The notes: generated from the sequence alone by a model not told the origin. Positions 798-15,735 are shown, counted from the stretch's first letter. The stretch is 17,633 bases of DNA from Candidatus Sigynarchaeum calidifontis (GCA_030587475.2 JAUQYZ020000045.1:1-17633); one strand, 5' to 3'. Made by a program: numbers and translations.

Positions 798-2096
798 ATG
801 AAACTCGAGATCATCGAAGCGGGCGAGGCCGAGGGCCGGGCGTTCGTGAACCCGGAAGACATGAAGTCATTGCGGGTTGATGACCTCGATGTTGTCGTCT
901 TCACGAACGAATACGATGATTGGGGAGCCGCACAAGTCGTCGCCAAGGAGGATTGCGAGCCAGGCTATATCATGATCGACAGCATGACCCTGGATTCCGC
1001 CAACATGTCCTCGGGTGACAAGGTAGAAGTCAAGAAATCCGAACCTAGAGGTGGCATCACCGAGGTCCAGATAGGCGTCGAACCGATGGGCTCGCAAGCG
1101 ACCGAGAAGGCGGTCGTTTGGGTCGCCGACCACGCGTCCGAGATGTCCGAGCTCCTCAAGAACCGGCCCATCTTCCGCAACCTGGAGATCAACTGGCGGG
1201 ATGCCGAGATCGGCCACGTCAAGCTCAAGGTCGTGCAAACCAAGCCCCCCATCCAGCCCGGCGAAACCGCCATCATCGATCCCGCGGGCCAGGAGATCAC
1301 GTTTGAAATCATTCCCGCGGTCGACATGAGCTTCAACGCCATCTTGCTCATCGACGTCTCTGGATCCATGCTCAAGGAAGACATGGAAGTCCACGAGATC
1401 GATGGCGCCATCGAGGGCTTGCGCCGCGGATTCGCCGAGACCAAGGACCTCACCCGGTTTCTCGACCAATTCCGCGAGGGGGACAAGGTCTCCCGCATCG
1501 CCAGCGCGGCGATGGCCACCTTGCTCTACCTGTCGCTCAAGATCGGTCGTGGCTGGGGCGAAAACGTCCAGCTCATCACGTTCGGGGATGATGTCGAGCT
1601 CCTCCAGGTACAAGACAAGAAGGGAAACATGTCCCCGGTTATCGAGTGCACGGGCGAGATGCGGGAGCTCAACTTGAACACCGTGGCATATTATGTCATT
1701 GAAAAATGCAAGAAAGCGACGGGCCTCACGACCATGAGCGTCGCGCTCAAGATCGCTGGTGATCAAGTCAAAGCATTTCCAAAGAACCAGCGCACGGGGA
1801 AACAAAACCCGACCATGATCGTCCTTCTCAGCGACGGGAACCCGAACAAGGGCGACGAGGAACAAGGCATCCCGGTCAACCCGATCCCCGTGGTGAAGCA
1901 GTACCTGGTCCGTGAGGACATCGTCCTCTACACGATCGGCATCGGCGAGGCGGATGATGTTGTCATGCAGCGCATCGCGGACTTGGGCCGGGGCGAGTAC
2001 TTCCGGGCCACCAATTTCAAGGAACTATGGCGATTTTACGACATCCTGGCGCAAAAGTTTTCCATCGCGGCAAAGATCAAGACAGCGAATAAATGA
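798..2096 (+). CDS. CDC48/VAT N-terminal-domain (double-psi barrel plus beta-clam) fused to a von Willebrand factor A domain; no AAA module
   Basis: The N-terminus follows the CDC48 N-domain pattern: LEIIEA...GRAFVNPEDMKSL...GYIMIDSMTLDSANMSSGDKVEVKK, then LKNRPI...LKVVQTKP...II. From about aa 180 there is a vWA with complete MIDAS: LLIDVSGSM (DxSxS), GLTTMSVAL (T), IVLLSDGNPN (D), LYTIGIG, IADLGRGEYF. No Walker A/B. Confidence 0.85.
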   Translation: MKLEIIEAGEAEGRAFVNPEDMKSLRVDDLDVVVFTNEYDDWGAAQVVAKEDCEPGYIMIDSMTLDSANMSSGDKVEVKKSEPRGGITEVQIGVEPMGSQATEKAVVWVADHASEMSELLKNRPIFRNLEINWRDAEIGHVKLKVVQTKPPIQPGETAIIDPAGQEITFEIIPAVDMSFNAILLIDVSGSMLKEDMEVHEIDGAIEGLRRGFAETKDLTRFLDQFREGDKVSRIASAAMATLLYLSLKIGRGWGENVQLITFGDDVELLQVQDKKGNMSPVIECTGEMRELNLNTVAYYVIEKCKKATGLTTMSVALKIAGDQVKAFPKNQRTGKQNPTMIVLLSDGNPNKGDEEQGIPVNPIPVVKQYLVREDIVLYTIGIGEADDVVMQRIADLGRGEYFRATNFKELWRFYDILAQKFSIAAKIKTANK

Positions 2097-3023: not shown

Positions 3024-6000
3024 ATGAACATCCCCTCGACTCCCTTCCCGCAACCTATCGGCAACGAGATGGAGCTGCAGATCGTGAACGACGCTGGGGC
3101 AATATTGCGGGGAGAAGAGCTCATCAAGATCTGGAACGCGATATTCGACAAGATCGAGCTCTCGTTCAAACAAGCCCTTGGCATGGCTCCCGAATACATC
3201 CGAAAGCGAGTCGGGGCGATCAAGCGAGTTACCAAGGAAAAATCGGGAAAACAACTCCCGTATCTCGATATCGAGTACAAAACCTTCAAAACATTCCATG
3301 TTTCGGCGATAGGGCCGGATCCTAACATCAGCCAAGTCACTTGGCTAATGGAACTCGTCACTCCACCAGCCAGCACGATGGAGGAATTCGCCTGGTGGAA
3401 TTCCCTCTTGAACACAGCCCTCGTCAAGTCCTTGCCACCCGGCTACTGGATCTTGCCGCTTGGCTTGAACCCCGCAGAGAAGGAATACTCGAGCGGCGTC
3501 ACTTTTGGCGAGCATTACCACGTCGGCGTCGATGACCCCGGCCTCAAGCTGGCGATCTACACGCTCATCCGCGATTTCATCCCGCATCTCATAGCCCTCA
3601 CCGTGAATTCCCCTTTCATCAACAAGAAGCCGACAGGTGTCGTGAAGGTGACGGATGACGGGAATGGCTTGCAGATCTTGGGAAAAGATTGCACGAAAAG
3701 CTTGCGCTTGTTCTACAACAAGGCTCAGATGGGTCCCGTGGACAAGGAAACGTATATACCTTGCTTGAAAGCACTCGACAAGGATGCCTTCTGCGATGTA
3801 ATCCGCCGTAAACCCCCCGACGACAGGTTCGTGGACATGTACCCGTTCACGCCCTACGGGACCATCGAACTCCGTGTTTTCGACACGCAATTTGCGCTCT
3901 CGCGTCGGCTGGCGATAGTCGCGCTGATCGAAGCGCTGTGTTTGAAGGCAAAACGGCTGCTCGAGCGAGGCGAGAGCATTCCTTGCGTCCTCTCGTCCGT
4001 CTTGATCGCGAACCGCGAGAAAGCTGTTTTATTCGGCTTGCACGGCAAGTTCACGCCGGACACCACGCTACCGGGGTCGTTCGGGATGACCTACAACGAG
4101 GACCCTGCCACGGGCAAGCAAAACGGGAAGTTGTTTCAAGCCGTGAACAGCATGCTTTTTTTCTTGAAAAAAGAGATCGCTGATCTCGGGTTCAAGGAAA
4201 TCTTGTTACCGATACAGATCTCGATAGAAGGAAACAATAAAATCAGAGCACCAGTCACGCCGTCAGATTACTTGCTTTATCTTTCAGAGAAACAAGGTGG
4301 CGATATCGAGAATGCGCTTCACTGTTTCAAGCAACTCCAGGCAACGTATTGCATAGGCTCGCCCAATACTTTGGAAGATCCCCTCGTCGTCGAGTGGGGC
4401 AAGCCTGGAAATGGCATCTCCCAATCGCCAACACACAGGAGTGTTATTATGGCAGAGGCGGTGCCCGCGCCCGCATCGACAGAAATTGATTTCACGGGTA
4501 TTGCTGCGACGGCCACCGAATCCCAGGTCAAGGTTGTAAAGCCGATACCGTTCCAGCTCTCCTTCACCATCGCGTCTTCGCTACCCCGGAATAGCGTTGA
4601 TATCCTCGCGATCCAGCAACTCATAGAGATCCAGAAAAAAGCGGAGATCGTGCTCGCCACGAGCTTCAAGCGATTCGCCGCGCCGGTCAACCAACAAGTT
4701 ACCATCAGTCAGGACGAGTTCCCGCTCGTCCCGGCCCAGGATCTGTTCATCGGGAACAAGCAATGCCGCCTCAAGTTTTCCCTCAAGGATAAGCAAAAGG
4801 AGGCGACCACGTATTCCAATGCCTTCTGGATCGAGTTGCTCCCGAGATATGTAATTACCTCGGAATTCCGGAAGCGAAAGGTGTCTCCTGGTGAAAAGCT
4901 GGATGTCAAGTACAAGATAACGTCGACGAGCAGCACGGCTCCCCTTTCGGCCATACAAGTGGATGTAAAATTCCAAGTGCTATCAGCCGACGGGACGACG
5001 GTCTTGTATCAAACCGACCAACACGCGAGCGTGAAGGATACCGAGACCGTGCAGTTCAAGGTCATCCCGCTTGCATCGTGGAAGGATAGAGAACTCTCTT
5101 TCCGCGTCGTCGCGATGTTGAAGGATAAAATCATCGCACGCCATGAAATCGGCCAGATAATTCTTGACATCCCGGAAGAAATGCCGGACACGTTCACGCC
5201 GCGATTGGTGGAGAAAAAAGCGGAGATAAAGCCGCGAAGCACGGAGCCGGCTGTCCAATCCTCCGCACCGGCCACGGGCGACAAATATGGCCTCGTTAGG
5301 ACGCTCGCGTTCTCCTCGGCTCCCGAAAAGCAAGAACCAAGCACGATGCCGGTAAAGATGCCCGCGCGGGGCCAGCGCGAGTTGAAAATCCCGCCGTCGC
5401 AGCTCAAACGACATGTAGCGGAACCACTGCGGATTATCAATGTCCCGGAAACGATCTCTGCGCCGAAAGTGAAATCGTCAAAGGATATCAAGCCCCTCGT
5501 TTCTACAAGCACGCCTGCACTTGATGAAAAAGCCGAACGCGAGCGCATGGCGAATCTTCTCGCACGTGAGACGACAAGCAAGCCACGTGTAGACGCGAGT
5601 TCGTTGAAGGTGCCATTTCTCGAGGCCGTCGATGCCGCAAGCGCGAAGGTCGAGATCGACGTTAAGCTACTTTCCCCGCGCCTCGTCGCACCGGGGGAGA
5701 AGATCGTCATCGCCTACACAATGAAAAAGACCAAGACAATCGGAGAAAACGAATTCTTGAAACTAATCTCTTTTTTAATGAATATACGTCAAGAATTCAT
5801 CGTTGTCTTGAACGAAAAATACAAATTCCAAGGCGACACCTCGAACTTTACCCTCACGGTCGATCCACAGAAACATTTCAAGGATTGGAAACCAACCGAG
5901 CCGTTCCACGCCGTGCTGCAAGCTTATCTTGACAACACCCTGGTCGGTCAAGCTGTGTACAGCGACTTCCAGCTTGCCAAGTTCACGACCAGTTCCCAGA

Positions 6001-7007
6001 TCACGTGGAAGAAAATCGATCTCCTCTCCGGGACGATTTACCCGGGCATGGACGCGGGCTTCGAGTTCGATCTCGACGTGAAGAGCATCGTGAACCCGGT
6101 TGCCATCGCTATAGAGGCAAGCTGCCAGGGGACGATCGTTACCACGGACTTTATGGTGAAAAAGGAGGGCACGAACCATTTCATCGCACCGTTCAGGGTA
6201 CCATTTCAAGGGCTCATCACCGTGCCCAGCACCCCGATGATCATCAAGATAAAGGACAGCTCGGGCATGACCATAAAGGAACAAAAGAAGACCATTGCCA
6301 TCATCGCCCGGGGGCCCGTGTTCGTCATCAAGGACGTGGTGCTGGACACGATGGAGGGCCTCGACAATGCGACGCTCACGTTCGAGTTCATCAACGACGG
6401 CAAGCTGCCCGTTTCGTGCGACGTGACGGCTCTCGCGATCGAGCCTGGCGGCTCCAGCCACGAGATCGCTTCCCGAAAGCTCAAACTCAAGGGCATGGAG
6501 ATGCAGCACGTGGAATGCACGAAAGTACGCTTGCCCATCAATGCCATCCGTGATAACACCATCATTATCGATTTTCTCATCGAGATCGCCGATTTTAACA
6601 AGATCAAAAACCTCATCCGCCAACACGTGAAACTAGACCCCGCCCCCGGCGAGAAAGTGAACGTTTATTTCCACGGGAAGCTGAAAAACATCGACCGCGT
6701 GCGCGATATCACCGCCTACATCGACAAGGTCGGCATCGAGATAGAAGTGCGCAAGGAGATCACGCTGGGGGGATGCAAGGCGAAGGTTGTCGAGATCGTG
6801 GACGGCGAAGCCCGCAAGGTGATTCACGTGGTGAAATTGCCAAAAGGTCGCGAACGGGTGCACGAGAACATCACTTGGAGGCCGCCGCGCGCGAAAACTT
6901 TCCCCTCGCTTTGCAAGCTCGAAGTGCAATTCTTCCAGGACGATGATCAAGTTGAGATCGATCGCATGCGCACCGAGCCACTCTTTTTCACGATCTTTCC
7001 CGAGTAA
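3024..7007 (+). CDS. GCS2/YbdK-family carboxylate-amine ligase domain (aa ~1-460) fused to multiple predicted beta-sandwich domains and a low-complexity linker
   Basis: Ligase motifs: IGNEMELQIV (GxExE), MELVTP, GLNP, FGEHYHVG, IALTVNSPF...TG, SLR, GTIELRVFD. The C-terminal ~850 aa have alternating-hydrophobic beta strands (e.g. ATLTFEFINDGKLPVSCDVT, LVAPGEKIVIAYTM, KVSPGEKLDVKYKI) split by a P/K/S/E-rich linker (aa ~720-870). No signal peptide or TM helix is evident. Confidence 0.85.
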   Translation: MNIPSTPFPQPIGNEMELQIVNDAGAILRGEELIKIWNAIFDKIELSFKQALGMAPEYIRKRVGAIKRVTKEKSGKQLPYLDIEYKTFKTFHVSAIGPDPNISQVTWLMELVTPPASTMEEFAWWNSLLNTALVKSLPPGYWILPLGLNPAEKEYSSGVTFGEHYHVGVDDPGLKLAIYTLIRDFIPHLIALTVNSPFINKKPTGVVKVTDDGNGLQILGKDCTKSLRLFYNKAQMGPVDKETYIPCLKALDKDAFCDVIRRKPPDDRFVDMYPFTPYGTIELRVFDTQFALSRRLAIVALIEALCLKAKRLLERGESIPCVLSSVLIANREKAVLFGLHGKFTPDTTLPGSFGMTYNEDPATGKQNGKLFQAVNSMLFFLKKEIADLGFKEILLPIQISIEGNNKIRAPVTPSDYLLYLSEKQGGDIENALHCFKQLQATYCIGSPNTLEDPLVVEWGKPGNGISQSPTHRSVIMAEAVPAPASTEIDFTGIAATATESQVKVVKPIPFQLSFTIASSLPRNSVDILAIQQLIEIQKKAEIVLATSFKRFAAPVNQQVTISQDEFPLVPAQDLFIGNKQCRLKFSLKDKQKEATTYSNAFWIELLPRYVITSEFRKRKVSPGEKLDVKYKITSTSSTAPLSAIQVDVKFQVLSADGTTVLYQTDQHASVKDTETVQFKVIPLASWKDRELSFRVVAMLKDKIIARHEIGQIILDIPEEMPDTFTPRLVEKKAEIKPRSTEPAVQSSAPATGDKYGLVRTLAFSSAPEKQEPSTMPVKMPARGQRELKIPPSQLKRHVAEPLRIINVPETISAPKVKSSKDIKPLVSTSTPALDEKAERERMANLLARETTSKPRVDASSLKVPFLEAVDAASAKVEIDVKLLSPRLVAPGEKIVIAYTMKKTKTIGENEFLKLISFLMNIRQEFIVVLNEKYKFQGDTSNFTLTVDPQKHFKDWKPTEPFHAVLQAYLDNTLVGQAVYSDFQLAKFTTSSQITWKKIDLLSGTIYPGMDAGFEFDLDVKSIVNPVAIAIEASCQGTIVTTDFMVKKEGTNHFIAPFRVPFQGLITVPSTPMIIKIKDSSGMTIKEQKKTIAIIARGPVFVIKDVVLDTMEGLDNATLTFEFINDGKLPVSCDVTALAIEPGGSSHEIASRKLKLKGMEMQHVECTKVRLPINAIRDNTIIIDFLIEIADFNKIKNLIRQHVKLDPAPGEKVNVYFHGKLKNIDRVRDITAYIDKVGIEIEVRKEITLGGCKAKVVEIVDGEARKVIHVVKLPKGRERVHENITWRPPRAKTFPSLCKLEVQFFQDDDQVEIDRMRTEPLFFTIFPE

Positions 7008-7094
7008 CTAGCAATATTGGTTTATTGCCCCTCCGAGCGATCGGAATACATAAAGAAGGTAATAGTTCAAGATCGAGGTTTAGTGAAAAGGATC

Positions 7095-9284
7095 ATGACA
7101 TTAATGAAAAGACGTCAAGCCAAGGGAGAACAAGAGATCATTTCGATTACTGACGAGAAAGATGTCATTGAAAATATCGTGAAGAAAAAAGAAACAGGTT
7201 GGGATGAGGTAGGGTTCGCAAGACCAATCGGAGGCTTTTTTTACAATTATATCTTGTTTATCGTCGGCGCGCTCATCGTGCTCGCCCTCGGCACGACGCT
7301 ATTGCCGGCGGTGGTACCTTACCCTGAGATCTTCGGATACAGCACGATCGTGACGGGGTATTTCAAGCTGCTGTTCATGCTGTTCGACGCGGGGCTAGGC
7401 GACGCGCTCGGCCGGTTTTTGCCAGAATATCGCATCAAGAATCCAAAGCGAGCAATGGAATACATTTCTTTCTTTATATGGTTTCAAATGTTCACCGGGC
7501 TTGTCCAGGTAACCATGGTCGCTGCTTTCGTCATATCCTGGCTCCCAGAAATGACGATAGCGCATCTCGCGTGGATGATGCTCATCTATTCGACCGTGCA
7601 ATACCCCGGCATGCTCAGCATCTTCGCCAACGTGCTCCGTTCCTACCAGCAATTCGGGAAAGTCCAGCTGATCAGCTTCTTGCAAGACACGCTCATCCAG
7701 AACATCACGACGGTCGTGCTCGCGCTGGGTTTCGGGTATTGGTTCGACACGATTCCGAGCCTCGGGTTCGTAATGGGAGCCGCCACGGGATATATCCTTG
7801 GCCAATACGTCGACGATTTCATCGCCTTGATCATCGGTGCGAAGTTTTTTTCCGACGTGATGAAAGTTACCGGCTTCTCTGCACTCGACGCGATGCGGCC
7901 GCGTTTCAGCCGGAAGGTCGTCAAGGAATCGCTTGCTTTTGGCTTGAAAACGATGATAGGCCCTGTTTACGGCGTTGCCTTCGAATTCATCAGGTTGAAC
8001 GTCATGATCTTGCTTTTGCCGAGCTATGCGACGTGGATTGGATTGCTTAGCCTCGCCAAGGGCATCGCGGGTTTGGCCAACATTGCAGGACCGACCGCCA
8101 CGTGGACCGGGATCTCGTTTTCCGAGTCGTTCAACAATGGCAAAAAGCATCTGACCTACCATTACACGAAGTCGGCACTCAAGTGGATAACGTTCGTGAG
8201 CGCGTTTTTCTTGCCCGAGCTGATCATCGCGATCCCGACATTGCTCTATTCCGCGGTAAAGATATTGGGCACAGACTGGATCCTCGCAATCCCGCTCATC
8301 GCGCCATGCACTATCGAGCCGCTACTCGCGACGTACGACTCGATGCCCATGTCGGTCATCGCGAAGGTCGGCAAGCGCCTCGGCGAGAAGGAACGGGATG
8401 GCAAGGTGGAATACCAGGCAATGAAGGGCTCGCACATCCTCGAGCGCCAGCTCTTCTCGGTCCTCGAGACGTCCCTGAACTTCGGCATGCTCGTTCTCTT
8501 CATCTGGCTCGCGCCGCTCTTCGGCGGCATTAACGTCTACACGTTCATTTTCGCACCCATCCCGGTCAGGATCATCTTCGTCATCATCGGCTGGACGTAC
8601 ATCGACAAGCGCATCATTTCCTTGAAGCCGACGAGGGACTGGATGGGCCAGGGGCTCATCGCTACCGGGATCGCGACGGCGGTTTTCTGCGGGATCCTCT
8701 ACGTGCTCATCTTCTGGATCTACCCAGGAATGTACGACGCTACCCTTGCGGGGTTCAAGTCTGTTTTCCCGGAGGGCGACGTTGCAGAGTATCTCGCACT
8801 TATCCCCGGCGTCTTGATCATCCTTGCATCACTGCTCGTGTTTCCCGAGTGCATTTTCGCGCCCTTGTACGCTTATTTCGGCGGGTGGGACGACGTGTCA
8901 CTCGATGATTTCCGCAAGGCGGCCTTGTTAGCAGGCCCATCCAAGGGCATCACGATGCTCATGTACAAGATCAGCAAGTTTTTCCACGAGCGGTCGCCGT
9001 GGAAAAACAAGTTTGCCTTCAAGGACACGGAACTCGCCCTCAAGGAAGCGGACGAGCTCTTGCAGATCCGCAGGGCGCTCGATGCCAAGATCATCATGGA
9101 AAAGAAGACCAAGTACCTGGACGATCTCAAGGACCTGGAAGCCACGCTGGCCGCGGCGATCGAGTCGCGCGATTCCGATGATGCCCGCAGACTTCTTAGG
9201 TACATGGTGTCGATTGCCGAGGATAACAAGGACGACAAGCTCGCGACCGAGTACAAGGGAAGGCTTGCAAGACTTGAGAAGTGA
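7095..9284 (+). CDS. MOP/MATE-superfamily polysaccharide/oligosaccharide flippase-like membrane protein
   Basis: About 12-14 hydrophobic segments. It has FGYSTIVTGYFKLLFMLFDAGLGDALGRFLPEY (Wzx/Rft1-like D.GL..A..RF motif), NVLRSYQQF and KESLAFGLK. ATG 7095 (or 7104) is preferred over the track's TTG at 7017. Confidence 0.7.
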   Translation: MTLMKRRQAKGEQEIISITDEKDVIENIVKKKETGWDEVGFARPIGGFFYNYILFIVGALIVLALGTTLLPAVVPYPEIFGYSTIVTGYFKLLFMLFDAGLGDALGRFLPEYRIKNPKRAMEYISFFIWFQMFTGLVQVTMVAAFVISWLPEMTIAHLAWMMLIYSTVQYPGMLSIFANVLRSYQQFGKVQLISFLQDTLIQNITTVVLALGFGYWFDTIPSLGFVMGAATGYILGQYVDDFIALIIGAKFFSDVMKVTGFSALDAMRPRFSRKVVKESLAFGLKTMIGPVYGVAFEFIRLNVMILLLPSYATWIGLLSLAKGIAGLANIAGPTATWTGISFSESFNNGKKHLTYHYTKSALKWITFVSAFFLPELIIAIPTLLYSAVKILGTDWILAIPLIAPCTIEPLLATYDSMPMSVIAKVGKRLGEKERDGKVEYQAMKGSHILERQLFSVLETSLNFGMLVLFIWLAPLFGGINVYTFIFAPIPVRIIFVIIGWTYIDKRIISLKPTRDWMGQGLIATGIATAVFCGILYVLIFWIYPGMYDATLAGFKSVFPEGDVAEYLALIPGVLIILASLLVFPECIFAPLYAYFGGWDDVSLDDFRKAALLAGPSKGITMLMYKISKFFHERSPWKNKFAFKDTELALKEADELLQIRRALDAKIIMEKKTKYLDDLKDLEATLAAAIESRDSDDARRLLRYMVSIAEDNKDDKLATEYKGRLARLEK

Positions 9285-13447: not shown

Positions 13448-14836
13448 ATGAGCGAGACAGACGAGATAGATCCCTTTTTCACACCGCGAAGCGTCGTGCT
13501 CGTCGGCGTGAGCAGGGACATGGATAAATTCAACGGGATCGTCCTGAAGAACTTGCTAGCCGTTAATTACCCCGGAAAAATATATCTCGTCAATCCCAAT
13601 GCCAAGGAGATCCTTGGCATTAAATGTTATCCCCGCTTGGTCGACCTTCCCGAAATTCCGGAACTCGCCATCATTCTACATTCCGATGTCGGCCGGATCC
13701 TTGAAAATTGCGGCAAGAAAGGCATCAAGCACGTCATCATCCAAGCCGACATCTCGCTTCAAGAAGGGGCAGACCAGGACCGTATCGACAGCACGATAAA
13801 CGAGATTGCTTCTCGATATGATATCAAGTTCATGGGTCCGTCCCTCATCGGGCTGATCAATTTCCCGGGCCATTTCACGTCGTCGCTCATCCCGGTTCGA
13901 GATCACGTGGCTCACCTCGGAGAAGATCCCGCGCGGGCAGCTATCGGGTTCATGGCCCAATCCGGGGGCCTTGCAGGCGCATGCGGGTGGTGGCACCCGT
14001 CGCAAGACATCTCGTTCGCAAAGGTCGTGCATTTCCATGGACAGGTGAATGGGTCCATTCCAGATGGTGCCCTGGTGAAATACATCGCTGCAGATCCGAA
14101 CGTGAAAGTCGTGTCCTTGTTCATCCGCAAGATCACGCAATCGCTGGTCGATGCTGTCCGCGAATGCACTAGCGCCAAGCCCGTCTTGTTCAAGAAATGC
14201 GGGCAGCCGGTCGACGTCGACAAGCTCGTGGCAGCAGGGGCGTTGCAAGTCGAGGAATACATGGATCTCTTCGAGATCGCAAAGGTATTCATTTTCTCGC
14301 CACTCCCCCTGGGCAACCGAATCGGTTTGATAGGGCCGAGCTCCGGCGCGATCGACGTGGTCTTGAGCGAGTTCAAGAAAAACGGCCTGGAGTTAGCCAA
14401 GCCGTCCCCGGAGATCGAACAAAAGATCATCGACTTGCTCGGGGGTCGCGCGGGCAAGCGATGCAATCCCGTGGATTTCTGGCCACCGCCGCGCTTCTTC
14501 GGCCACGAGATAGGCCGCATCCATCTCGAGGCCGCCGAGTACCTACTTTCGGATCCGAACGTCGATGCGATATTCCTTGTTCTCGAGTTTTTCCACGAGA
14601 TCGAGTTCGACTTGCGCATTTTCGAGGATGTACTCGCTCGCCACCCGGACAAGCCCGTCATGGGCGTGCTTATCCAGGCCGAGGAGGACGGGGCGAGCCG
14701 CGTCGTGAAGGCCGCGACGATCTTGAGGATACCCATCTTCTCGGAGCCAGAGCGGCTCGTGCGGGCATATTCGATGCTGTTCCGGTTCTCGCGCGCTCGT
14801 AAGACAACAACAAGACCGAAATCGAGGAAAGAATGA
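13448..14836 (+). CDS. acyl-CoA synthetase (NDP-forming) alpha-subunit-like protein lacking the phosphohistidine segment
   Basis: CoA-binding domain: FFTPRSVVLVGVSRD..K, YLVNPNAKEILGIKCYP. Also MGPSLIG, AQSGG, DPNVKVV, NPVD and DPNVDAI. The expected 'KxGR...AAxSHTG' loop is replaced by KKCGQPVDVD. Confidence 0.85.
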   Translation: MSETDEIDPFFTPRSVVLVGVSRDMDKFNGIVLKNLLAVNYPGKIYLVNPNAKEILGIKCYPRLVDLPEIPELAIILHSDVGRILENCGKKGIKHVIIQADISLQEGADQDRIDSTINEIASRYDIKFMGPSLIGLINFPGHFTSSLIPVRDHVAHLGEDPARAAIGFMAQSGGLAGACGWWHPSQDISFAKVVHFHGQVNGSIPDGALVKYIAADPNVKVVSLFIRKITQSLVDAVRECTSAKPVLFKKCGQPVDVDKLVAAGALQVEEYMDLFEIAKVFIFSPLPLGNRIGLIGPSSGAIDVVLSEFKKNGLELAKPSPEIEQKIIDLLGGRAGKRCNPVDFWPPPRFFGHEIGRIHLEAAEYLLSDPNVDAIFLVLEFFHEIEFDLRIFEDVLARHPDKPVMGVLIQAEEDGASRVVKAATILRIPIFSEPERLVRAYSMLFRFSRARKTTTRPKSRKE

Positions 14837-15735
14837 TGGTTGGAACGGCGAAACCCATCCATGTTAAAATCCACGGGCTCGACATCGGGGATGATTTCCC
14901 CGTACGCATCATGGGGGTCTTGAACGTGAGCCAAGAGAGCTTTTACAAGCGGTCGGTCGTGGATGCAAAGGACATCCTGGTCAAAGCGAAGGCGATGATC
15001 GCCGGAGGGGCCACGATGCTCGATGTCGGTGGCCGCAGCACGGCACCGAACGTGCAACCCATATCCGTTGACGAGGAACGTGCCCGCGTGGTCACGGCAT
15101 TGAAAGCGCTCCTGCCGGGCCTCGATAACGACCGGGTCATTATTTCGATCGACACCCAATTCGAATCCGTCGCTGCTAGTGCAATGGATATCTTCCGATC
15201 GAGCGGCATGGAAAACCAATTCGTCATCAATGACGTGAGCGGGTTGAATGGAGACCCCGATCTCGCCCGTTGGGTCGCCAGGACGGGCAAGCCGTGCATC
15301 ATCATGGCATCTCACGGGAAGCCCGGCGACTCGCTTGGCGTAGAGCAGACTATCGCGGATCTTGGACGCAGCATTTCAAAACTCCGCGCCCTCGGTTATA
15401 ACGTGGAAGAAAAAGTGATCGTCGATCCGGCGATCGGCCGCTGGATCCCCGATAAAGGTCCCATATACGACCTCGAACTGCTTCACGAGCTGGAGCGGTT
15501 CCGAGCCGTCGGCGCCCCGCTGCTTGTTGCCATCTCCCGGAAGTCTTTCATCGGCGAGGTACTCGGAGAAAAGAATCCCGACAACCGCTTATATGGTACC
15601 CTTTCCGCGACTGCCATCGCCGTGTTCAAGGGCGCCCACGTGGTAAGAACCCATGACATCAGCAAGGAGACCCTCGACACGATCAAGGTCGCTGAAGCAA
15701 TCCGAAGGAAAGCCATCACGAAATCATTACCGTGA
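14833..15735 (+). CDS. folP: dihydropteroate synthase (archaeal type)
   Basis: IMGVLNVSQESFY, LDVGGRSTAP, ISIDT, INDVSG, IVDPAIG, ISRKSFIG, VRTHD; ATGA overlap with the upstream gene. Confidence 0.92.
   Translation: MMVGTAKPIHVKIHGLDIGDDFPVRIMGVLNVSQESFYKRSVVDAKDILVKAKAMIAGGATMLDVGGRSTAPNVQPISVDEERARVVTALKALLPGLDNDRVIISIDTQFESVAASAMDIFRSSGMENQFVINDVSGLNGDPDLARWVARTGKPCIIMASHGKPGDSLGVEQTIADLGRSISKLRALGYNVEEKVIVDPAIGRWIPDKGPIYDLELLHELERFRAVGAPLLVAISRKSFIGEVLGEKNPDNRLYGTLSATAIAVFKGAHVVRTHDISKETLDTIKVAEAIRRKAITKSLP

Follow-up and report, generated by a model that had tools for sequence, protein, structure and literature searches.

Among known prokaryotes, Asgard archaea are most closely related to eukaryotes. 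The N-terminal head of Cdc48/p97/VAT is built of two lobes, a double-psi beta-barrel and an Nc barrel, and the same fold is found in PEX1, NSF/Sec18 and the UT3 domain of UFD1. The only solved protein in which such a head and a von Willebrand factor A (vWA)-type domain follow one another in collinear order, over about 430 residues, is DEPDC5/Iml1 (Sea1; GATOR1/SEACIT), whose N-terminal domain (NTD) has been described as NSF/Sec18-N-like and whose SABA domain as similar to Sec23; no other protein is said to combine the two (PMC8534245). Here, we describe a protein, hereafter V (P0001), encoded in a 17,633-nucleotide stretch of DNA from Candidatus Sigynarchaeum calidifontis (GCA_030587475.2 JAUQYZ020000045.1:1-17633; the window), which is the entire contig C178 of a 5-Mb archaeal metagenome-assembled genome (MAG; 269 contigs, 89% complete). 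V joins a Cdc48-type head to a vWA domain, and we propose, with a probability of roughly 0.55, that it is a non-enzymatic docking or target-presenting subunit of a module comprising a giant predicted carboxylate-amine ligase, L, with or without a predicted Amidohydro_2 hydrolase, H. A literature search for a published description of a Cdc48N-vWA family found none.

Judging from its homologues, which range from 90% to 40% identity across Asgard lineages, V is a real gene. Its reading frame is preceded by a GGAGG-like motif and is organized as follows.

798-2096, + strand: V (P0001), Cdc48N-vWA protein of 432 amino acids (aa); complete ATG-to-stop frame with Pfam CDC48_N, VWA and VWA_2 all above cut-off.
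798-1052, + strand: N-domain lobe 1, double-psi beta-barrel, aa 1-85; Pfam CDC48_N at aa 12-81 and match to the VAT double-psi barrel.
1053-1325, + strand: N-domain lobe 2, Nc-type beta-barrel and two helices, aa 86-176; from structural alignment, the sequence being invisible to Pfam.
1326-2072, + strand: vWA domain, aa 177-425; Pfam VWA, VWA_2 and structural matches.
1353-1367, + strand: DxSxS motif (DVSGS, aa 186-190) of the metal ion-dependent adhesion site (MIDAS); motif search and alignment.
1374-1493, + strand: family-specific insert of ~40 aa, aa 193-232, between the DxSxS loop and helix alpha1; from the V model.
1728-1730 and 1833-1835, + strand: the other MIDAS residues, T311 and D346, respectively; from the alignment.

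Pfam recognized CDC48_N in lobe 1 with 42.2 bits (gathering cut-off 35.1), and this lobe matched the double-psi beta-barrel domain of VAT over 80 aa (Z 13.2, root-mean-square deviation [rmsd] 1.7). No CDC48_2 domain was found in V by Pfam scan, lobe 2 having no Pfam match of any kind; R123, P124 and W133 of this lobe were nonetheless invariant in an alignment of 41 family members. The head (aa 1-176) was modeled separately (predicted local distance difference test [pLDDT] 92.6) and aligned against ~48,000 representative PDB chains, which yielded the following matches.

CDC48A-N (p97-type): Z 16.7, rmsd 2.7 Å, 162 aligned residues.
PEX1-N: Z 15.7, rmsd 3.4 Å, 159 aligned residues.
NSF-N: Z 14.7, rmsd 4.3 Å, 162 aligned residues.
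Sec18-N: Z 14.6, rmsd 3.7 Å, 155 aligned residues.
VAT-N: Z 13.2, rmsd 3.5 Å, 161 aligned residues.
UFD1 (2yuj): Z 13.1, rmsd 3.0 Å, 157 aligned residues.
Pex6 N1: Z 12.3, rmsd 3.1 Å, 150 aligned residues.
DEPDC5 NTD: Z 11.8, rmsd 5.0 Å, 153 aligned residues.

Since these alignments cover aa 1-176, both lobes are present, though sequence methods detect lobe 1 alone. The complete two-subdomain CDC48-type N-domain with a double-psi barrel that an earlier reading of the stretch (the sequence-only reading) had claimed, naming p97, NSF and Ufd1 as relatives, was thus borne out. The head of V shares 21% identity with the N domain of Cdc48 from the same genome, in which three canonical Cdc48 genes were found, pointing to an old divergence rather than to a recently truncated Cdc48. 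Unlike Cdc48/p97/VAT, V has no D1/D2 AAA modules, the vWA domain following aa 176 instead; consistent with the sequence-only reading, there was no AAA match in Pfam and no Walker A motif in the V sequence. The head also matches the UT3 fold of Ufd1, with UFD1 ranking below the N domains of Cdc48, PEX1 and NSF; V moreover lacks the C-terminal SHP and Npl4-binding parts of Ufd1, and no UFD1 Pfam family was found at E<=1.

The vWA half was recognized by Pfam at aa 182-410 (VWA, 38.7 bits; VWA_2, 30 bits; both above cut-offs) and superimposed in VIA-align on canonical vWA domains with Z 19-22.7 and rmsd about 2, including 4fx5 (Z 22.7), TFIIH p44 (Z 21.6) and Rpn10 (Z 19.2). All five MIDAS ligand residues (D186, S188, S190, T311 and D346) were invariant in the 41 family members, so that the MIDAS-intact vWA domain expected from the sequence-only reading stands, as does its ~40-aa insert. 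The full V model, obtained with AlphaFold2 on 41 homologues (pLDDT 89.7; predicted template-modeling score [pTM] 0.85), shows the latter as a strand-helix-helix-strand unit (strand 194-197, helices 202-211 and 216-222, strand 230-232). The mean column conservation of the insert, 0.58, was about as high as that of the N domain, and D195 and R233 were invariant. The region encompassing it (aa 157-232; 1266-1493) gave a weak phmmer match to parvalbumin EF-hands (E 0.03), but an EF-hand reading was rejected for want of a canonical EF/calcium-binding loop, the match being probably due to chance. The pTM of 0.85 suggests that the two halves of V are held in a fixed arrangement, with the Cdc48/p97-type head packed rigidly on the vWA domain. 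The stop codon comes 7 residues past the vWA domain and thus leaves no room for a ubiquitin-interacting motif (UIM), SHP or Npl4-binding region. Four proteins of the Heimdall clade (P0039, P0042, P0046 and P0072) carry a Glu/Asp-rich C-terminal region of 60-80 aa with a conserved EEEYGGPGE motif that P0001 does not have and that might serve for docking or be modified.

Among 5.8 billion proteins searched, 90 relatives of V were retrieved, of which the named ones were nearly all from Asgard archaea. The lineages represented were Sigyn-, Loki/Prometh-, Hod-, Heimdall-, Thor- and Freyr/Jord-archaeota, and an exhaustive profile-free search extended the family to more remote paralogue groups, among them Odin and a small number of longer proteins. 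A pattern-based locus search of GTDB genomes, which gave 8 true relatives, was replaced by direct genome searches. By this approach, the phyletic distribution, to which the sequence-only reading had pointed as a check, proved to be Asgard-wide, with a V family member in 63 of the 151 sampled genomes of the phylum and in 48 of the 72 high-quality ones. Several genomes harbored two or three V paralogues.

Two other genes recur with V across the phylum, the first of which is found in the window.

3024-7007, + strand: L, putative giant GCS2-type carboxylate-amine ligase of 1327 aa (Pfam GCS2, 28.4 bits; cut-off 21).
3024-4403, + strand: conserved core of L, aa 1-460 (about 450 aa), whose only recognizable part is a GCS2/YbdK-like stretch.

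L lies 0.9 kb downstream of V on the same strand and is related to YbdK with an E value of 3e-4. Its 73 homologues were found in Asgard sequences only and fall into length classes that track clades, overall length varying from ~990 to 1416 aa. The ~870 C-terminal residues of L (aa ~460-1327) have no recognizable domain, and the ~570-aa L of the sister genome family f2 is devoid of this C-terminal tail. The second gene, H, encodes an Amidohydro_2 protein and was picked up as a neighbor of a Freyr orthologue of V. A BLAST search for an H-like region inside the window's L found none. When 44 V-positive genomes were searched with the window's L and with H, both were present in all 44. In each of the 37 genomes outside f2, at least one V shared its contig with an H no more than 6 kb away; L was located within 12 kb of V in 31 of these 37, the six exceptions being fragmented assemblies with L on another contig. 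In family f8, H lay next to V in all 19 genomes, with L about 7-11 kb off on the same contig in 16, and Freyr/Jord-type genomes each contained two complete H-V-L sets plus a third, unlinked V. In the 6 genomes of f2, which belong to the same order as the MAG, the short L was adjacent to H in every case and V was 9-52 kb off on the same contig in three. Gene order at single loci varied (H|V|L in Freyr; H-L-V in Hod; H and a >1086-aa open reading frame [ORF] 6 kb away in Heimdall), and the association of the three genes was conserved over eight genome families.

Natural fusions further tie V to both partners. P0165 (962 aa) combines V (aa 9-410) with the core of L (aa 453-913; E 1e-54), P0171 (889 aa) combines H (aa 8-333) with V (aa 498-818), and P0187 consists of an H fragment and V. 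Seven ORFs of 870-895 aa with an H-like N-terminal part were also noted (G047:C65, G064:C231, G070:C89, G088:C407, G112:C36, G146:C42 and G038:2361917), two of them directly beside an H-V pair. Because these ORFs match P0171 in length and layout, H-V fusions may represent a regular paralogue class. Genes for Cdc48, PAN, the proteasome or MoxR, in contrast to L and H, were not linked to V in any locus examined.

This pattern of linkage bears on the possibility that V is a generic vWA regulator with a protein-binding N domain and no fixed enzyme partner, acting either as an ArnB-like phospho-switch or with a MoxR-type AAA+ protein encoded elsewhere. Archaeal ArnB is indeed among the best matches of the vWA domain and has the highest identity of these (Z 20.7, 24% identity), vWA proteins are versatile, and some V paralogues, such as the third copies in Freyr/Jord-type genomes, have neither H nor L nearby. 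However, the window contains no MoxR, FHA or kinase genes, and the strong phylum-wide linkage of V to H and L, together with two kinds of natural fusion, argues for fixed partners. We therefore regard a partnerless regulator as very unlikely.

In the window's own clade, V and an L of 1323-1337 aa occurred together in the window as well as in two relatives (80-90% identity), downstream of a syntenic tRNA-splicing endonuclease gene. The remaining features of this locus are as follows.

1-561, - strand: gene for a tRNA-splicing endonuclease that precedes V; synteny with contig L048 of a relative.
2219-2848, + strand: 209-aa ORF between V and L with PQQ_2/beta-propeller matches, too short for a full propeller.
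7017-9284, + strand: 755-aa ORF starting 10 bases after L.
13448-15735, + strand: CoA-binding/succinyl-CoA-ligase-like gene and pterin-binding gene, downstream; the pair is syntenic with contig L048.

The synteny of the flanking genes with L048 indicates that the V locus is chromosomal and stable. The content of the V-L interval differs between the three contigs, the window carrying the PQQ-propeller fragment and the relatives small ORFs or a ceramidase gene; the 209-aa ORF is thus regarded as variable spacer sequence that is probably a fragment of a gene, other genes occupying its place in the relatives. The 755-aa ORF was considered as a further part of the module and rejected, since it had no Pfam match (E<=1) and was not kept beside L in the two relatives. 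No H was found near V on the contigs of the window and the two relatives. The sole H-like gene of the assembly is a distant one of the f2 type on contig C88. It seems that the hydrolase of this set has been lost or relocated in the window's lineage; given 89% completeness, the absence of H may be claimed for the locus only, not for the genome. A 451-aa ORF past the tRNA endonuclease gene on a relative's contig, considered as a diverged hydrolase, was rejected as an unrelated hydrophobic protein.

Taken together, these observations led us to favor a model in which V is a rigid two-module docking protein of an Asgard-specific enzyme module built on L and joined, in most lineages, by the metal hydrolase H. 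The MIDAS metal of V would bind a carboxylate of a partner or target, either an Asp/Glu side chain or a C-terminus, and the cleft of the head would bind a peptide motif or a small beta-grasp domain. V would thereby select or present a substrate on which L would form, and H would remove, an amide bond in a pupylation-like write/erase cycle. Our confidence in this chemistry, which is drawn by analogy, is considerably below that in the subunit role itself. Several points weigh against the model. The roles of V, L and H are predictions from sequence, gene linkage and modeling; the GCS2 assignment of L depends on a short match of 28 bits at aa 158-205, in a protein of which ~870 residues have no known domain. 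With H missing from the window's locus, a write/erase pair is not evident for P0001. A PQQ-propeller fragment intervenes between V and L, and the two may not be co-transcribed. The substrate of the module could be a small molecule, and the link to a ubiquitin operon, to which we now turn, is that of a sister clade and not of P0001.

Nine relatives of V, of 511-587 aa, end in a ubiquitin-family domain (Pfam PF00240). A conserved ...PASTAG forms the exact C-terminus of the ubiquitin-like (Ubl) tail in two of them and is followed by 1-14 residues in the rest. FastTree, run on 122 family members with SH-like (Shimodaira-Hasegawa-like) support, placed the Ubl-fused proteins in one clade (support 97), sister (support 100) to the unfused clade holding P0001. 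The same MAG encodes one of them on contig C26 (G000, locus L012), where seven genes overall are arranged as follows.

C26 5350-12576, + strand: Ubl (165 aa), E1 (ThiF), E2 (UQ_con), JAB and a 378-aa RING-like protein.
C26 5350-12576, - strand, convergent: Cdc48N-vWA-Ubl fusion (585 aa) and a 373-aa coiled-coil protein.

A Ubl-E1-E2-JAB set adjoined the Ubl-fused V in four of four informative contigs from Sigyn (C26 included), Hod and Loki genomes, in three different gene orders, a fifth contig ending at the gene. The free Ubl of the cluster ends in ...PASTAG-M and has SKTP linker motifs in common with the fused tails. The family of the ORF after JAB is conserved at 38-77% identity; it shows the pattern CxxC...CPxCxHxxH...CxxC without exception and matches RING domains weakly. 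The ORF just upstream of the V-Ubl gene belongs to a conserved coiled-coil family. As read from these sequences, the fusion of a whole adaptor to a conjugatable-looking Ubl is unusual. In three Freyr/Jord genomes with V, H and L, neither a STAG-type Ubl nor a full-length E1 orthologue was found, and in G139 the ubiquitin cluster and V are on different contigs. Since lineages without the fusion thus lack this type of Ubl/E1 or keep it unlinked, the ubiquitin link is derived and the link to H and L older. After gene duplication, the sister clade would have been fused to a Ubl with a conserved terminal Gly and drawn into the Ubl-E1-E2-JAB-RING-like cluster, a recruitment suggesting that the H-V-L module, too, acts on proteins.

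The sequence-only reading had cast V as a stand-alone adaptor delivering substrates to an unfoldase or proteasome. In its most explicit form, V would be a stand-alone ubiquitin/substrate receptor, with a Ufd1-like head and an Rpn10-like vWA domain, passing proteins that bear a Ubl tag on to Cdc48, PAN or the proteasome. Such a receptor accords with the matches of the head to UFD1 (Z 13.1) and p97-N (Z 16.7) and of the vWA domain to Rpn10 (Z 19.2), with the three canonical Cdc48 genes of the genome, and with a Ubl-fused sister clade lying inside Ubl-E1-E2-JAB clusters. In eukaryotes, JAMM deubiquitinases have vWA proteins as partners (Rpn10 for Rpn11, MERIT40 for BRCC36), and the JAB protease gene adjoining the sister clade of V echoes the Rpn10-Rpn11 pairing. 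The receptor reading is at odds, however, with the lack of any unfoldase or proteasome gene near V at the loci examined, with the co-occurrence of V, H and L in Freyr/Jord genomes in which the Ubl and full-length E1 orthologue were not found, with the separate contigs of V and the ubiquitin cluster in G139, and with the end of P0001 only 7 residues after its vWA domain, with no UIM, SHP or Npl4-binding region. A complex prediction for P0001 and the Ubl domain of the ubiquitin operon of the same genome (alignments A1 and A3; score 0.00, mark 0.32) speaks neither for nor against binding. On balance, we consider a receptor of this kind unlikely. A non-catalytic adaptor or docking role does fit the anatomy of V, and the ubiquitin and proteostasis flavor of the original proposal persists indirectly, through the Ubl-fused clade; what fell away is the proposed destination, as the conserved partners and fusions are with a GCS2-type ligase and an Amidohydro_2 hydrolase, and the family also occurs in lineages without a STAG-type Ubl/E1.

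The sequence-only reading had also held the architecture of V to be uncharacterized, in line with our literature search; a two-domain parallel nevertheless exists in the NTD and SABA domains of DEPDC5/Iml1 (PMC8534245), although membership in that family was not supported. The best full-length Foldseek matches of V were DEPDC5/Iml1 chains (E about 1e-12, 430-550 columns, TM-score over the query [TMq] 0.35-0.40, rmsd about 10), which outranked p97-N chains, the latter covering the head only. V could accordingly be viewed as the archaeal counterpart or ancestor of DEPDC5/Iml1 NTD+SABA, scaffolding a GTPase-regulating, proto-GATOR1 complex, a view with which the DEPDC5 NTD match of the head model (Z 11.8), the published NSF/Sec18-N-like and Sec23-like descriptions of the two domains, and the small GTPase genes found near some family members would agree. 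Each domain of V is nonetheless nearer to another relative, the head to canonical Cdc48-N (Z 16.7 versus 11.8) and the vWA domain to canonical vWA domains. Rigid-body re-ranking of the full V model placed canonical vWA domains, and no DEPDC5, among its best 50 matches, a result uninformative on simultaneous superposition of the two domains. No sequence signal was detected either, a search of the genome with Pfam IML1 (PF12257) at E<=1 returning nothing and the V family profile finding no DEPDC5 chain among all PDB sequences at E<=10. V, which ends at aa 432, has no SHEN, DEP or C-terminal (CTD) domain, and it keeps a canonical MIDAS vWA. Its conserved neighbors are the putative ligase and hydrolase, unlike the Nprl2/3 and Rag partners of DEPDC5; Nprl2/Nprl3 longin and Rag genes were not among them. 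Asgard genomes are rich in small GTPases, and their occasional proximity to V is thus expected. A study of Asgard genomes by Liu et al. reported NPRL2-like longin proteins but no Depdc5 homologue (10.1101/2020.10.19.343400). The likeness of V to DEPDC5/Iml1 is therefore confined to fold and domain order; common descent is possible, but a proto-GATOR1 scaffold strikes us as highly improbable.

A broader synthesis, which we deem quite unlikely, would have Cdc48N-vWA proteins serve as a shared target-presenting adaptor for two Asgard tagging chemistries, that of a PafA-like giant ligase with or without a hydrolase, in the pathway of P0001, and that of an adaptor-Ubl fusion conjugated by E1/E2/RING-like proteins after trimming by JAB, and would place them at the origin of DEPDC5/Iml1 NTD-SABA. 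Irrespective of this synthesis, the V family redeploys the cofactor-binding head of Cdc48/p97 apart from its motor, shows the domain order of a nutrient-signaling scaffold, DEPDC5, and in one clade is fused to the tag of a ubiquitin operon. If V presents targets to an amide ligase, the module would amount to an undescribed prokaryotic system for marking proteins or metabolites. It would then afford a tractable view of how eukaryotic adaptor modules such as those of Ufd1, Rpn10 and DEPDC5 could have arisen from older parts. The Ubl-fused sister proteins provide a test case for the ubiquitin-like conjugation of an entire adaptor.

Compared with known systems, V departs from MoxR-vWA chaperone pairs in that neither the window nor the related loci examined contain an AAA+ gene. 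The role proposed here resembles that of Rpn10, MERIT40 and TFIIH p44, in which a vWA domain acts as a non-enzymatic assembly subunit of a large complex; V extends this plan with a Cdc48-type head at the N-terminus and with 40 inserted residues following DxSxS; it has no zinc-finger tail and, unlike Rpn10, no C-terminal extension able to hold UIMs. With regard to the module as a whole, the closest analogy is pupylation (PafA, Dop and Pup), PafA belonging to the GCS2/glutamine-synthetase fold class. The hydrolase of the H-V-L module is of the Amidohydro_2 fold rather than a paralogue of PafA, a Pup-like tag was not identified, the ligase is three times larger, and the non-catalytic partner is a Cdc48N-vWA protein. 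Although the likeness in chemistry is by analogy, both systems would thus bring together a ligase of the GCS2/glutamine-synthetase fold, an amide-cleaving enzyme and a non-catalytic protein.

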